NCBI GenBank assembly: GCA_944358675.1
Contig: CALVRN010000003.1
Coordinates: forward strand, 3,163-67,162
Length of the DNA stretch: 64,000 bases
Direction of reading: 5' to 3'
DNA from: an uncultured Bacilli bacterium
GTDB taxonomy: Bacteria; Bacillota_I; Bacilli_A; RF39; UBA660
The position numbers were made by a program, and so were the translations under genes. Positions 31,326 to 52,004 of this stretch are shown here, one piece after another. Numbering within the stretch: the first letter of the stretch is position 1; each line of letters starts with the position of its first letter. Under the pieces are notes generated by a model. It was given only the letters and a program-made list of their open reading frames with translations. It ran no database searches and had not been told where the DNA came from.

Positions 31326-31910
31326 ATGAATAGAAAATTGAAATTTATTTTAGCTGTTATTGCCCTTGTTTTTTGTATCACACAAATTCAACAAACTTAT
31401 GCGAAATATGTGGATACTAAAGAAGGAGATACTAATTTTACAGTAGCTAAATGGAAAATATTAGTTAATAACCAAGATATTACGGAAGCTGCAACAATGT
31501 CTTCTTTGATTAATCCAGTTTATGTTCAAAATGATAATGTGGCGGAAGGTGTGATTGCGCCTGGTAGTGAAGGTTATTTTGATTTGGTTATAGATGCGAG
31601 TAAAACTGAGGTTTCATTCCAATATAATATTTCAGTTACTACTTCAGAAAATAGTAGTGTTAAGGATTTAATTATTACAGGTTATACTTTAAATGATGGA
31701 ACACTAATTCCTGTTGATAGTGAGCTTAATAATATTTCTAATACGGTTTACTATTACAGCGAAAATAAAGTTAATAGTCTTAGGGTTTATTTTAAATGGC
31801 TTGATGGCGATGGTGAAAGCATGGATAATAGTGCGGATACTGAGGCTTCTTTAAGTAATAATAGTGCGAAATTAAAAGTTAATTTATCATTTATACAGAC
31901 AAAAGATTGA
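31326..31910 (+). CDS. secreted protein with a SipW-cognate (TasA/CalY/camelysin-type) signal peptide; paralog of 40405..40971
   Basis: 194 aa. Signal ...LVFCITQIQQTYAKYVDTKEG (TasA-like A-x-[FY]-x-D class). Shares KWKILVNN / APGSEGYFDLVIDA / FKWLDGDGE blocks with 40405..40971 (KWHIYVND / APGSKGEFILEIDP / FSWTDSEE). Size matches camelysin/TasA-like proteins. Confidence 0.65.
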   Translation: MNRKLKFILAVIALVFCITQIQQTYAKYVDTKEGDTNFTVAKWKILVNNQDITEAATMSSLINPVYVQNDNVAEGVIAPGSEGYFDLVIDASKTEVSFQYNISVTTSENSSVKDLIITGYTLNDGTLIPVDSELNNISNTVYYYSENKVNSLRVYFKWLDGDGESMDNSADTEASLSNNSAKLKVNLSFIQTKD

Positions 31911-31927
31911 GTTATTTCTCAATCTTT
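31900..31927. terminator. bidirectional hairpin agattgag-ttattt-ctcaatct between convergent genes
   Basis: Perfect 8-bp inverted repeat overlapping the stop of 31326..31910, followed by TTTTG. Confidence 0.5.
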
Positions 31928-32515
31928 TGTTTGGCTTGCTTTAATTTTTACAATAATTTTTATTTGAGGTTCATTACTTTCCTCTTTAAATTCATATGAT
32001 TTTTTTCCATAATAGGTATCGGCTTCATCATCTCCTGATTCAAAAGGCCAGTTTAAAGTTGCGGTAAAGTTTCCTGTTTGCCCAACCGTAATTTCAGTAT
32101 CACTATTTATAAAAGATAATTTAAAAGGATAATTATTATTTAAAATATTAATGAGCTGTTCTTGAGTGTAATTTTCTTTGGTATATGTTTCATCAAATAT
32201 TTGGATAGACTCAATTTGATAACTAATATAAGCGGTCATTTCTCCATTGTTAGTAATATCTATTTGTTTTACTTGAGTATCAATTCCAGGATAAATATCA
32301 TCAAAATTAAATTCAACATTTTCTTCTAAGTCTTGTCCATCTTGGTCAAATGTTATTTTCCACGAGCGAACACCGGTGGTGATACTATTTGATACTTTGT
32401 TTGTATATATAAACCAAGCGAAACTATTAGCTATTAAAGCAATTACTAGAAAAAATAAGGTCCTTTTTCTAATCCTTTTTTTTATTTGTTTTAATTTATT
32501 TTGTTTCTTCATCAA
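31919..32515 (-). CDS. secreted protein with SipW-cognate signal peptide (module A cargo)
   Basis: 198 aa. ...LVIALIANSFAWFIYTNKV signal of the A-W-F-T type. C-terminal L-N-W-P-F-E-S-G-D-D-E motif shared with the other island proteins. Overlaps the upstream sipW by 20 nt. Confidence 0.65.
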   Translation of the reverse strand: MMKKQNKLKQIKKRIRKRTLFFLVIALIANSFAWFIYTNKVSNSITTGVRSWKITFDQDGQDLEENVEFNFDDIYPGIDTQVKQIDITNNGEMTAYISYQIESIQIFDETYTKENYTQEQLINILNNNYPFKLSFINSDTEITVGQTGNFTATLNWPFESGDDEADTYYGKKSYEFKEESNEPQIKIIVKIKASQTKD

Positions 32516-33062
32516 TTTCTTCTTCTTTGTTTTTAATATGATCTAATATTTCAAGGAATATTAGAAAAGCAAGTGGAACAAAGACTAGAAAGTAGAAACC
32601 ATAGGAATTATTTAAAATATGACTTAAAAAGCTTAAAAGTGCGGGTTTATATTTAACAACACCATAGATTTGTGAACTATCTATTTCTGGATCATCGGCA
32701 TTATTTGCTGTACCTCTAGTCGTAAAGGTATATTCTCCGTTGTTTTTTTCAATATTGACAACTCTATGGGTTACAATTTTATCAGTAAAGTCACCTTTTT
32801 TACCTAAATAAGCGACATCATCTCCCACTTTAATGTTTTCTGGATTTTCTTGTTTGACAATAACGACATCATATATATCATAATCCGGTTTCATACTGCC
32901 TGATACAATTGTAAACATACGGTAACTACCGATTGATACTTTGTTATCAAAAATTCTTTGAATTAATACAACTGCAACTATTAAAATAACAAATATCCAT
33001 ATAATTATTTTTAAAATTGTCAATAAGATTTTTATAAATTTATTATCTAATATTTTACTCAT
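32496..33062 (-). CDS. sipW: signal peptidase I, SipW/archaeal-ER type (catalytically intact)
   Basis: 188 aa. N- and C-terminal TM. SGSMKP (catalytic Ser), THRV (His), TRGTANNADDP. Same architecture as B. subtilis SipW of the tapA-sipW-tasA operon. Confidence 0.8.
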   Translation of the reverse strand: MSKILDNKFIKILLTILKIIIWIFVILIVAVVLIQRIFDNKVSIGSYRMFTIVSGSMKPDYDIYDVVIVKQENPENIKVGDDVAYLGKKGDFTDKIVTHRVVNIEKNNGEYTFTTRGTANNADDPEIDSSQIYGVVKYKPALLSFLSHILNNSYGFYFLVFVPLAFLIFLEILDHIKNKEEEIDEETK

Positions 33063-50299: not shown

Positions 50300-50320
50300 A
50301 CTACATTCTCCTTTCTATTT

Positions 50321-51307
50321 TTAAGCTGGATTGGTTGTGAATTCTAGACTAAAACTTATGTCTCCATAAGATGCATTATCTTCGCAGTCGACATCTTGTC
50401 CTTCAATCCACATGTAAATTCTTAATTTTGTTATTCCTGAATTTAAGGTTAAAATTTGTTCGTTGTTAGTATTATTCATAACTGTTTTTATATTTGGATT
50501 AACACTTTTAAAGAAATTAGGATATCTATTTGAATTAGCTTCGGTTATTGAAACATTATCTCTAGCAGCTATATTATTAATAACTCCATAATAAGGTAAG
50601 GCGGCGGCGCCTGATGTTGAGGTGTGCAATCCATAAATATTTAAAGCGTTTTGAACACCATAGGTTGTATGGACATCATAATTAGGTTCCCATATAATTG
50701 CATTACTTGCATTATTTAAATTTTGGGCAATATTTGAATTATCTCCACTTGTTCCTTCGTTTAGAAAGGCAACTCTTGTGGCGTTTTCAATACCAACACT
50801 TTGGTCACCTAGATATGTGATTTTTGAATTACTTGATAAGTATAAATCTTTTTGATTAGAAGTTTTAAAAAATATATCAAATGCTATAAAACTTCCATCA
50901 CTTTCTTCTCCAAAACTATTTGTTTCTATGCTTCTATTGGCAACTAAAACGTAGTTTGTTCCACTTGTGTTTGTAGCTTCACCTTTAAACATTTCTAATT
51001 TTCCGTTACTGACATTTCCTCCTGTTGATGTTGGAAATAGTTGATATGGAACTTGATTTTCACTTCCTGGATAAGTTTTAGCGGCATCTTTGATATCATC
51101 AGTGGTTATAACTTGTTTCCAGTTGATGGCATCAGTACTAACTTCTAATCCTCCATCAGCTTGAACATGTACATTTAAAGCATCAATACTAACTACTCTA
51201 TTGGCTGTAAACCAAGCATATGTTGTAGTTATTAGTAAGATTGATGTAAATAAGATTGAGAGTAACAATAATTTTCTTCTTTTTTTGGTATTATTTTTCT
51301 TTGGCAT
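50321..51307 (-). CDS. SipW-cognate secreted protein, paralog of the 341-aa major-subunit candidate
   Basis: 328 aa. ...LLLLSILFTSILLITTTYAWFTANRVVSI. C-terminal RIYMWIEGQDVDCEDNASYGDISFSLEF. Overlaps the upstream gene by 17 nt. Confidence 0.7.
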   Translation of the reverse strand: MPKKNNTKKRRKLLLLSILFTSILLITTTYAWFTANRVVSIDALNVHVQADGGLEVSTDAINWKQVITTDDIKDAAKTYPGSENQVPYQLFPTSTGGNVSNGKLEMFKGEATNTSGTNYVLVANRSIETNSFGEESDGSFIAFDIFFKTSNQKDLYLSSNSKITYLGDQSVGIENATRVAFLNEGTSGDNSNIAQNLNNASNAIIWEPNYDVHTTYGVQNALNIYGLHTSTSGAAALPYYGVINNIAARDNVSITEANSNRYPNFFKSVNPNIKTVMNNTNNEQILTLNSGITKLRIYMWIEGQDVDCEDNASYGDISFSLEFTTNPA

Positions 51308-52004
51308 TTTCTATATGTTCCTCCGTAATTTCCATTTTCAGTTTTATTTCACCACCAATAATGGCATCAACACATTCTGGATCATCACCTTCTAGGTAAA
51401 TGACAATTGTGTATTTGTCATTTTCATTTGGTTTAATATGTTTTCTTTGTTTTAAAACAGCAATGTCATCTGAATAAAATGGGGTTGTACCTTCTTCTGG
51501 GTTACCTGTCAATTCGTTTTTTTTGGCATAAATTATTCTTTCGTTATTTTGATAAATCATTATACGAATTGCTTCATCAACGTTTTTGATGACATCTAAG
51601 ATATTTATTTGATACCAATAATTTATTGTTTCTTTTCCATGGTTACCAACATAAAATGTGTATGCGATATAGTTTTCACCATTATGAGTACCTTCGGCTT
51701 CATTATTAATGTTTTGTGGTAACCAATTTACTGATATATTATCCATAAAATCTATTTCTTTAGCATATAATCTATTTTTGGGTTCTGGATTATCTAAGTG
51801 TTCAAAAAGAACTAGTCCACTTTTTAAAGAAAAGTTTGGATCTAATGTGACTGTGAAACTTCCGCCTTTATAAATTACCATCAACACGAAAAAAATAGCT
51901 AGAAGTAAAATAAATAAAATTATGACTATTCTCTTTGTATACTTAAGCCTCTTTTTTCTTTTTTCTAGTTTTTGGGCGGTGACTTTAACATTTGTTAGTG
52001 CCAT
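51291..52004 (-). CDS. membrane-anchored protein sharing the island's C-terminal E-G-D-D-x-E-C motif (candidate fibre base/anchor)
   Basis: 237 aa. Basic cytoplasmic N-terminus (KRKKRLKYTKR), one TM, external domain ending ...VIYLEGDDPECVDAIIGGEIKLKMEI (compare YMWIEGQDVDCENNASGGKITFDLQL). Confidence 0.55.
   Translation of the reverse strand: MALTNVKVTAQKLEKRKKRLKYTKRIVIILFILLLAIFFVLMVIYKGGSFTVTLDPNFSLKSGLVLFEHLDNPEPKNRLYAKEIDFMDNISVNWLPQNINNEAEGTHNGENYIAYTFYVGNHGKETINYWYQINILDVIKNVDEAIRIMIYQNNERIIYAKKNELTGNPEEGTTPFYSDDIAVLKQRKHIKPNENDKYTIVIYLEGDDPECVDAIIGGEIKLKMEITEEHIENAKEK

Follow-up and report, generated by a model that had tools for sequence, protein, structure and literature searches.

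Divergent C-terminal paralogues in a gene cluster of uncultured gut Bacilli point to a SipW-dependent, TasA-like surface fibre with a probable signal-anchored subunit

The stretch of DNA analysed here, a 64-kb window from an uncultured Bacilli bacterium with a genome of about 28% G+C, contains a 21-kb gene cluster (positions 31326-52004). The cluster lies within a block of 20 tightly packed genes between lepA (28851-30653) and valS (53129-55675), a single one of which is encoded on the plus strand. A first-pass annotation of the window had proposed that nine proteins of the cluster share an acidic C-terminal motif, that six listed C-termini look like paralogues, and that the protein encoded at 51291 is the membrane base on which the secreted subunits polymerise by donor-strand-type assembly as in TasA. 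We recovered 79 related loci, in genomes labelled as uncultured Bacilli, "Tenericutes", Clostridium sp. CAG:914/609/628 and the like, and many gut-metagenome contigs carry identical or near-identical copies of the region. Since each gene of the cluster has orthologues in dozens of the 79 loci, with gene order kept, the region is a lineage-wide chromosomal cluster of uncultured gut Bacilli and not a mobile island.

Six genes are central to what follows. ANCH (51291-52004, 237 residues) encodes a putative signal-anchored subunit with a basic cytoplasmic tail, one transmembrane (TM) segment and an extracellular domain that carries the C-terminal motif. It overlaps by 17 nt with MAJ-B (50321-51307, 328 residues), a paralogue of the probable major subunit MAJ-A (38165-39190, 341 residues). 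Three small subunits bear the motif as well: S5 (40405-40971, 188 residues), S2 (31919-32515, 198 residues) and S1 (31326-31910, 194 residues), the last being the one gene on the plus strand. The six C-terminal strings quoted in the first-pass annotation are all present near the C-termini of these open reading frames (ORFs): IYLEGDDPECVDAIIGGEIKLKM in ANCH (residues 202-224, nucleotides 51333-51401), YMWIEGQDVDCEDNASYGDISFSL in MAJ-B (residues 298-321, nucleotides 50345-50416), YMWIEGQDVDCENNASGGKITFDL in MAJ-A (residues 311-334, nucleotides 38189-38260), FSWTDSEEYNESD in S5 (residues 152-164, nucleotides 40480-40518), LNWPFESGDDEAD in S2 (residues 154-166, nucleotides 32018-32056) and, on the plus strand, YFKWLDGDGESMD in S1 (residues 155-167, nucleotides 31788-31826).

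The strict core of the motif, the heptapeptide EG[QD]D.[DE]C, has exactly three copies in all long ORFs of the window. These are found in MAJ-A, MAJ-B and ANCH, at the same place, about 20 residues from the C-terminus. A looser acidic pattern also matches two unrelated housekeeping ORFs, and the evidence concerning the small subunits is therefore taken from profile comparison and not from strings. Pairwise BLAST within the cluster gives three links only, i.e. MAJ-A with MAJ-B (43% identity, E 2e-88), S1 with S5 (E 1.5e-14; 99.8% in hhalign of the mature segments) and the MAJ proteins with ANCH over their C-terminal 31 residues (E 0.008-0.02, against a tiny database). We compared the family alignments built from the 79 loci by profile-profile alignment (hhalign) of mature, C-terminal (70 residues) and N-terminal segments; these trimmed segments were used because links between full-length proteins were inflated by the hydrophobic N-termini of the signal peptides. 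With the C-terminal profiles, MAJ-A matches MAJ-B (100%, E 4.7e-44) and ANCH (96.6%, E 6.7e-10, 39 columns in register), MAJ-B matches ANCH (95.3%, E 2.1e-8) and S1 matches S5 (96.9%, E 1.7e-10). The small subunits are joined to the major ones by S1 and MAJ-A (62%, E 7.4e-5), which align in register, iRVyikW and its acidic loop standing over KvRIYMW-EGQDVDC and D-T opposite D-C, and S2 is joined to S5 (46%, E 2.1e-4). No column shuffle out of 150 reached the observed score for MAJ-A with ANCH, S1 with MAJ-A, or S2 with S5, and the register between the MAJ proteins and ANCH was reproduced in an independent comparison with database-derived alignments.

These comparisons show that the motif is present in six proteins, most clearly in MAJ-A, MAJ-B and ANCH, and that the six are divergent paralogues, as had been suspected. 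The count of nine does not hold. Neither S3 nor S4 has a link to the other families in the C-terminal 70 residues; S4 (39275-39835, 186 residues) is a relative of the S1/S5 group through its mature N-terminus only (34 residues, 86%, E 5e-6), and is a seventh paralogue by that other region. The similar-looking C-terminus of the giant protein of the cluster, hereafter GIANT (SLYDGDVYIGDC; …LYDGDVYIGDCEEY), was considered as a ninth copy and rejected, its register and spacing being different and its Cys not conserved among orthologues.

The columns of the motif do not vary across thousands of MAJ and ANCH homologues. Conservation falls on the W or other aromatic residue with which a strand ends, on a group of acidic residues, on an invariant Asp with the Cys or Ser/Thr after it, and on a Gln in the last strand. 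In MAJ-A, MAJ-B and ANCH (38228-38248, 50384-50404 and 51372-51392) a near-invariant single Cys follows the invariant Asp, and we found no conserved partner Cys for it; S1, S2 and S5 have Ser or Thr at the aligned position. This Cys might be a metal ligand or take part in a covalent cross-link. In the AlphaFold2 (AF2) model of MAJ-A, which is beta-rich with a predicted local distance difference test score (pLDDT) of 85, the motif runs from the end of the penultimate strand (residues 304-315) through a loop (316-329) into the last strand (330-337). The equivalents in the beta-sandwich model of S5 (pLDDT 81) are a strand at 146-154, a short helix and a strand at 177-185. The unit thus consists of the last two strands, the first of them ending in W or another aromatic residue, and of the acidic loop that joins them, E-G-x-D-x-D-C or, where the small subunits are concerned, D-[ST].

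To relate this unit to TasA we verified the TasA sequence against PDB 8aur and added seven plasmid-borne TasA/CalY proteins to make a profile. The C-terminus of ANCH aligns with that of TasA/CalY over 40 columns (75.5%, E 2.4e-5, none of 150 shuffles reaching the score), the TasA/CalY side reading …D.F.VKF.F.DNG.DQN.FQGD.L.L…F.A.Q. The major subunits reach TasA/CalY transitively only, through ANCH. The motif thus appears to correspond to the beta-hairpin, conserved and with an acidic loop, with which the TasA fold ends. The donor strand of TasA is N-terminal, comprising residues 28-38 directly after the SipW cleavage site (PMC9674648). Hence, the C-terminal motif is a core hairpin and not the exchanged strand, and the idea that the C-terminal strands serve donation is not supported.

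A better candidate for the donor lies at the other end of the proteins. In the major subunits the segment following the signal peptide, A|WFT.NK.V, is invariant in the family, and in the AF2 monomer of MAJ-A the residues 29-42 are modelled as disordered although they are invariant. The S5 model has the same properties, being beta-rich with its conserved post-signal segment disordered. Because it is invariant and yet disordered in the monomer, the N-terminal segment is predicted to be a better donor candidate than the C-terminal motif; in MAJ-A the candidate strand is WFTANKTVSVN (nucleotides 39053-39085). The N-terminus of S2, AWFIYTNKVS (nucleotides 32384-32416), resembles that of the major subunit (profile E 8e-4), in a way reminiscent of the mimicry of the TasA strand by TapA. 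MAJ-A is larger than TasA and has an inserted alpha/beta region. It has 3581 homologue clusters without a Pfam family, and it matches the SipW-cognate signal model TIGR04088 with 20.5 bits, the cut-off being 19. Its gene is bracketed by a promoter-like site (39221-39249; TTGAAA, 17 nt, TG-n-TAAAAT) and, directly after the stop codon, by a hairpin with a T-run (38125-38165; -9.9 kcal/mol, z -2.4). These signals suggest, at the level of consensus matches, a separate and high expression that would fit a major subunit; the overall scan for promoters and terminators did not exceed the shuffle expectation.

The S1/S5 family is very large, with 2715 representative clusters (50% identity) at E <= 1e-3. 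In other organisms, modules of this type are found as N-terminal domains of larger proteins (P0341, P0351, P0420 and P0405), which can reach 3,424 residues and in which they are fused to BspA-type leucine-rich repeats, to Cys-rich repeats of the ephrin-receptor-like kind or to an FGE-sulfatase-like domain. By its domain company the family would fit a role as a carrier of adhesins incorporated in a fibre.

Four genes of the cluster belong to the signal-peptidase family. Those at 32496-33062 (188 residues) and 39819-40400 (193 residues) match TIGR02228 (E 2.4e-23 and 1.5e-21, respectively) with the motifs SM.P, THR and GDxNN.D conserved, and are predicted to be catalytically intact SipW-type signal peptidases I. 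The other two, sip0a (37605-38096, 163 residues) and sip0b (40968-41492, 174 residues), are SipW-like; sip0b retains a weak match to TIGR02228 (2.3e-6). In their families all three catalytic motifs (Ser, His, Asp) are lost in every orthologue and both TM segments are kept, which marks them as putative catalytically dead SipW-type peptidases. They may act as non-catalytic factors in the handling of subunits. Each of the two genes directly precedes a small-subunit gene. Across the orthologues of seven families the end of the signal follows one cleavage pattern, [TS]-[YF]-[AGS]|x-[FY] for positions -3, -2, -1 and +2, and that of TasA/CalY is alike (GGGT-Y-A|Y-F). The combination expected of the TasA superfamily, a SipW-type signal and a co-encoded SipW-type (archaeal or endoplasmic reticulum-type) signal peptidase I, is thus found here.

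ANCH stands apart. Its 3078 homologue clusters include none with a Pfam family. The TM segment (residues 26-45, nucleotides 51870-51929) is followed by Y-[K/N]-G-G|x-F, in which the G at -1 and the F at +2 are kept and position -3 is K, N or E, in breach of the -3/-1 rule, to which the seven other families all conform. The maximal hydrophobicity over 19 residues is 3.1-3.3, against 1.9-2.65 in the cleavable families, and equals that of the bona fide TM helices of the cluster. The 25-residue cytoplasmic tail is basic and also has conserved non-basic residues (V6, V8, T9 and A10, in V.V.A.K). A signal peptide that is cleaved off and lost would not be expected to show such conservation. Finally, in 18 of 20 loci the gene directly downstream of ANCH is a MAJ gene, the other two being at contig ends. 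Because of the -3 residue, the hydrophobicity, the conserved tail and this adjacency, we conclude that ANCH is probably an uncleaved signal anchor partnering the major subunit. The first-pass annotation had correctly read a basic N-terminus and one TM segment at 51291, and its proposal that a cleavable signal is lacking is supported, though not proven; of the membrane base that it saw there, the probable anchored partner of the major subunit stands, and the implied role of the C-terminal strands in donation does not.

The longest gene of the cluster encodes GIANT (43160-50299, 2379 residues). The protein is secreted, its signal (FTYG|AI) is SipW-type, and between residues ~700 and 1470 it has at least 24 tandem [FY]GG[GSN]N repeats of about 25 residues. 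Such repeats are typical of beta-helical adhesins. We found orthologues in 46 loci, and the end of the C-terminal beta-domain is conserved as GTYK..FSLYDG..YIG…Y.IIK. GIANT has no match in Pfam, NCBIfam or PDB, and is a probable adhesin.

A further part of the cluster recalls the McrBC restriction systems. The protein encoded at 34178-35692 (504 residues) is an McrB-like GTPase composed of a TM segment (residues 62-80), a putative coiled coil, visible as heptad-like sequence, and an AAA+ domain. Residues 56-131 weakly match FtsL models (E 0.035), the AAA+ domain matches McrB (PDB 6hz4, 2.4e-4), the protein matches the PADLOC model PDC-M26A (5e-34), and the NxD-D signature N345-N346-D347-D348 is invariant. 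It is the most conserved protein of the cluster, with 77% mean column identity. Its neighbour at 33055-34164 (369 residues) has an McrC N-domain (DUF2357, PF09823, 4.1e-13) and a helical C-terminal part in which we found no nuclease signature, the conserved columns of that half holding no acidic catalytic residues. By these features the pair (33055-35692) appears to match the CoCoPALM class (McrBC-linked pilus assembly) that Bell et al. named in PMC11090510, a paper that defers the description to a later publication. The traits given for the class, an McrB-like GTPase with NxD followed by D or E next to a DUF2357 McrC homologue and signal-peptidase-family genes, are present here, with four peptidase-family genes in the cluster. 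In the literature that we searched we found no follow-up description of CoCoPALM.

On balance, we think it somewhat probable that the cluster encodes a heteropolymeric surface fibre, SipW-dependent and similar to those of the TasA superfamily, working as follows. Cleavage by SipW would expose the N-terminal segment, WFTANKTV in the major subunits, and this would serve as the donor strand that completes the beta-sandwich of the neighbour, as in TasA. The acidic C-terminal hairpin would be a conserved core element near the acceptor site and might bind a divalent cation. ANCH, retaining its signal sequence as a membrane anchor together with a C-terminal hairpin of the major type, would dock the major subunits and tether the fibre. 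GIANT and the small subunits would be tip or adaptor components, and assembly would have as its accessories the two dead peptidases and the McrB/McrC-like GTPase pair tethered to the membrane. The fibre is the most likely explanation of the locus; polymerisation, cation binding and the role of the GTPase are what we infer.

If ANCH were not a permanent base, the tether would have to be revised. The protein might be cleaved by SipW after all, or be a nucleator similar to TapA that donates its post-TM segment SFTVTLDPNF to the first major subunit, the fibre then growing outwards. ANCH does keep the G at -1 and the F at +2, its x-F-T is common with the W-F-T of the major subunits, the residues F50, T51, L54, D55 and P56 are invariant, and TapA has an N-terminal mimic of the donor strand (PMC9674648). 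But K, N or E at -3 violates a rule obeyed by seven other families, the helix is as hydrophobic as the true TM anchors of the cluster, and the conserved cytoplasmic tail is hard to reconcile with a signal peptide that is thrown away. We regard this possibility as unlikely, although it is the least unlikely of the alternatives. One might also suppose that the motif is the mere mark of a duplicated beta-sandwich fold, and that these are independent surface or matrix proteins exported through SipW that do not polymerise by strand exchange. The evidence for polymerisation is indeed not direct, the structural comparisons gave generic folds, and there are no matches to TasA-family hidden Markov models (HMMs). 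Against this view stand a post-signal segment that is invariant and modelled as disordered in the monomer, the inheritance of eight secreted paralogues together with an anchor, a giant adhesin and four peptidase-like genes, the position of S5 modules N-terminal to adhesin domains in fusions, the link of ANCH to TasA/CalY, and the promoter-like and terminator-like signals that MAJ-A has of its own; we hold it to be rather improbable. A compositional coincidence among acidic proteins encoded at low G+C is very improbable. The loose pattern does hit two unrelated housekeeping ORFs, and the C-terminus of GIANT looks similar and is not conserved. Yet, the profile links are in register and above all 150 column shuffles, the strict heptapeptide is confined to the same position of three proteins, and its columns are invariant across thousands of homologues. 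The C-terminal profile alignment, which the first-pass annotation had put forward as the way to tell, thus refutes coincidence for the six listed proteins.

Several results weigh against a TasA-like fibre. The links between the small-subunit and major classes are modest (62% and 46% probability), S3 has no hhalign link to other families on mature, C-terminal or N-terminal segments, and GIANT has no sequence link to the other subunits of the cluster. Apart from ANCH, no family, major or small, aligns with the TasA/CalY profile in hhalign at E better than 0.01. The eight small and major proteins have no match to Pfam PF12389 Peptidase_M73 (E <= 0.01) or to the NCBIfam TasA/CalY models (<= 0.1), none of 46 members of the S1/S5 family matches TasA/CalY family models at E <= 1, and PDB sequence searches with the subunit families gave no match. 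Foldseek searches with the MAJ-A and S5 models gave no significant match, TasA being absent from the top 50 of either; they retrieved generic beta-sandwich or jelly-roll domains (ColG CBD, CPE C-domain, capsid jelly rolls). The best structural match of the major subunit in PDB, weak as it is (E 0.08), is the Sulfolobus thread subunit 7pnb, and that thread is a donor-strand filament of the TasA superfamily. Placement in the superfamily draws on the signals and peptidases, on the C-terminal alignment of ANCH with TasA/CalY and on weak hints of fold, and not on membership by family HMM. In this sense the TasA-type system of the first-pass annotation is supported, by the SipW-type peptidases, the TIGR04088 match, the common cleavage pattern and the C-terminus of ANCH.

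Two further ideas are more speculative. The McrB/McrC-like pair, whose two members are better conserved than any other protein of the cluster, might engage the cytoplasmic tail of ANCH, the dead peptidases, or both, and form a nucleoside triphosphate-driven platform that assembles, gates or remodels a donor-strand fibre. To our knowledge, all donor-strand polymers known in the TasA superfamily are thought to assemble outside the cell without an energy source, and we consider such a platform unlikely. The motif D-[C/S/T] and the Gln of the last strand may form a covalent cross-link of the (thio)ester type, which we find less likely still.

Comparison with known systems brings out what is common and what is particular in this cluster. 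It resembles the TasA/CalY, SipW and TapA system of Bacillus biofilm fibres in having a dedicated SipW-type peptidase in the operon, a signal ending in T-[YWF]-A|x-F, a conserved post-cleavage segment (the donor strand in TasA), a C-terminal strand, acidic loop and strand that are in register with ANCH, and an accessory subunit with a major-like N-terminus (TapA there, S2 at 31919 here). It differs in lacking HMM-level family membership, in the number of its secreted paralogues (eight) and peptidase-like genes (four), in the presence of a TM-anchored subunit, of a giant adhesin and of an McrBC-like GTPase pair, and in having a larger major subunit (341 residues, with the inserted alpha/beta region) and a conserved Cys in the motif. 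The archaeal Tafi system comprises the pilins TafA/E, the tip TafC, the peptidase TafD, TafG and the anchor TafF, which is one TM segment followed by a jelly roll (PMC12337348). Going by this description, the anchor logic of TafF is that proposed for ANCH, but Tafi is archaeal, often Tat-dependent, has a DUF5305 accessory instead of dead peptidases and has no McrBC-like module. In Clostridium perfringens, BsaA, BsaB and BsaC are encoded with SipW in a multi-paralogue TasA/BsaA operon, BsaA forms membrane-anchored oligomers whose subunits are locked by an N-E-K isopeptide triad, and there is a link between secretion and a type IV pilin (PMC11580942). The likeness lies in several remote TasA paralogues sharing one SipW operon, and the pilin-like genes that flank our cluster recall the pilin-dependent secretion of the Bsa matrix proteins; in contrast, the Bsa operon has neither a dedicated TM-anchored paralogue nor an McrBC-like pair.

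Loci of the AbpX type include minor, tip and anchor proteins, and have Ca2+ at the interface of strand and groove (10.64898/2026.01.04.697558). With AbpX and CanA of cannulae, both Ca2+-dependent donor-strand polymers, the cluster shares acidic secreted subunits with an aromatic residue at mature position 2, minor and candidate tip and anchor proteins within the locus, and acidic clusters that could bind cations, which here are candidates. The Ca2+ ligands of AbpX are N-terminal and mid-protein, however, and not in a C-terminal E-G-x-D-x-D-C loop. As to CoCoPALM, the class in PMC11090510 has an McrB-like GTPase with NxD, to which a TM segment and coiled coil of the FtsB/FtsL kind are fused, adjoining a nuclease-less DUF2357 McrC homologue and signal-peptidase-family genes. 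This corresponds to 33055-35692 and its neighbours, where the FtsL-like part is a candidate; fibre subunits, an anchor or a common motif are not described in the text that we examined. By analogy, the cluster would follow a logic common to the Tafi, AbpX and Bsa loci, with a dedicated SipW-type peptidase, a major subunit, minor paralogues, a tip and a membrane anchor. Neither the families of the subunits nor the anchor architecture has been described.

The anchor and the major subunit each have about 3,000-3,600 clusters at 90% identity, and the small-subunit family 2,715 at 50% identity. For none of the subunit families is there a Pfam entry, a relative of solved structure or a function on record, and their hosts are abundant uncultured gut Bacilli. 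If the cluster does encode an anchored adhesive fibre, this would be a main organelle with which these reduced-genome bacteria attach to the host or to particles. The TasA superfamily would then gain a new architecture, in which a giant adhesin and signal peptidases that have lost catalysis are combined with a base subunit held by its signal anchor, and the McrBC-derived CoCoPALM GTPases would have their first concrete cargo, making their non-defence role testable.

The gene set varies among the related loci. In distant genomes its minimal form is ANCH-MAJ-U507-SIP-GIANT, and the module sip0a-S3-U326-McrB-McrC-SIP-S2 is kept in about 30 loci. In other genomes S1 is divergent and adjoins ANCH in 13 of 20. 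In L021, L031, L047, L059, L060 and L077 the two halves of the cluster are in reversed order, and in L020, L038, L058, L072 and L079 the fibre half has no McrBC-like half within 10 kb. U507 (41539-43062, 507 residues) is a conserved soluble protein that travels with GIANT by synteny, with no TM segment and no Pfam or PDB match, and U326 (35703-36683, 326 residues) is a conserved soluble protein within the McrBC-like module, with no relatives detectable in Pfam or in PDB profile searches. Between U326 and sip0a lies S3 (36695-37612, 305 residues), which is secreted with a SipW-type signal (TLG|RF) and has five Cys, C103, C109 and C227 being conserved.

Scans of all 20 proteins against Pfam, NCBIfam and PADLOC gave nearly nothing, the exceptions being SipW, DUF2357, N_methyl, TIGR04088 and PDC-M26A. 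When the families were searched against PDB as profiles, nothing or noise was retrieved for the major, anchor and small subunits, for the McrC-like protein, for U507 and U326 and for GIANT; the McrB-like profile was the only one to find a relative. In an exhaustive profile search the top 150 matches were close family members only and gave no connection with annotated families.

To judge from signals in its upstream region, ANCH is probably the first gene of a transcription unit. Between ANCH and a small TM gene (52090-52407) there is a 9-bp hairpin (52077-52099), and a promoter-like site is found at 52061-52032. On either side the cluster has a type IV pilin-like gene next to it, at 52501-53058 and at 30721-31176; the former has a prepilin N-methylation motif, the latter is its diverged relative (E 2.4e-10), and in one of the related loci (L042) a pilin gene is found inside the cluster.

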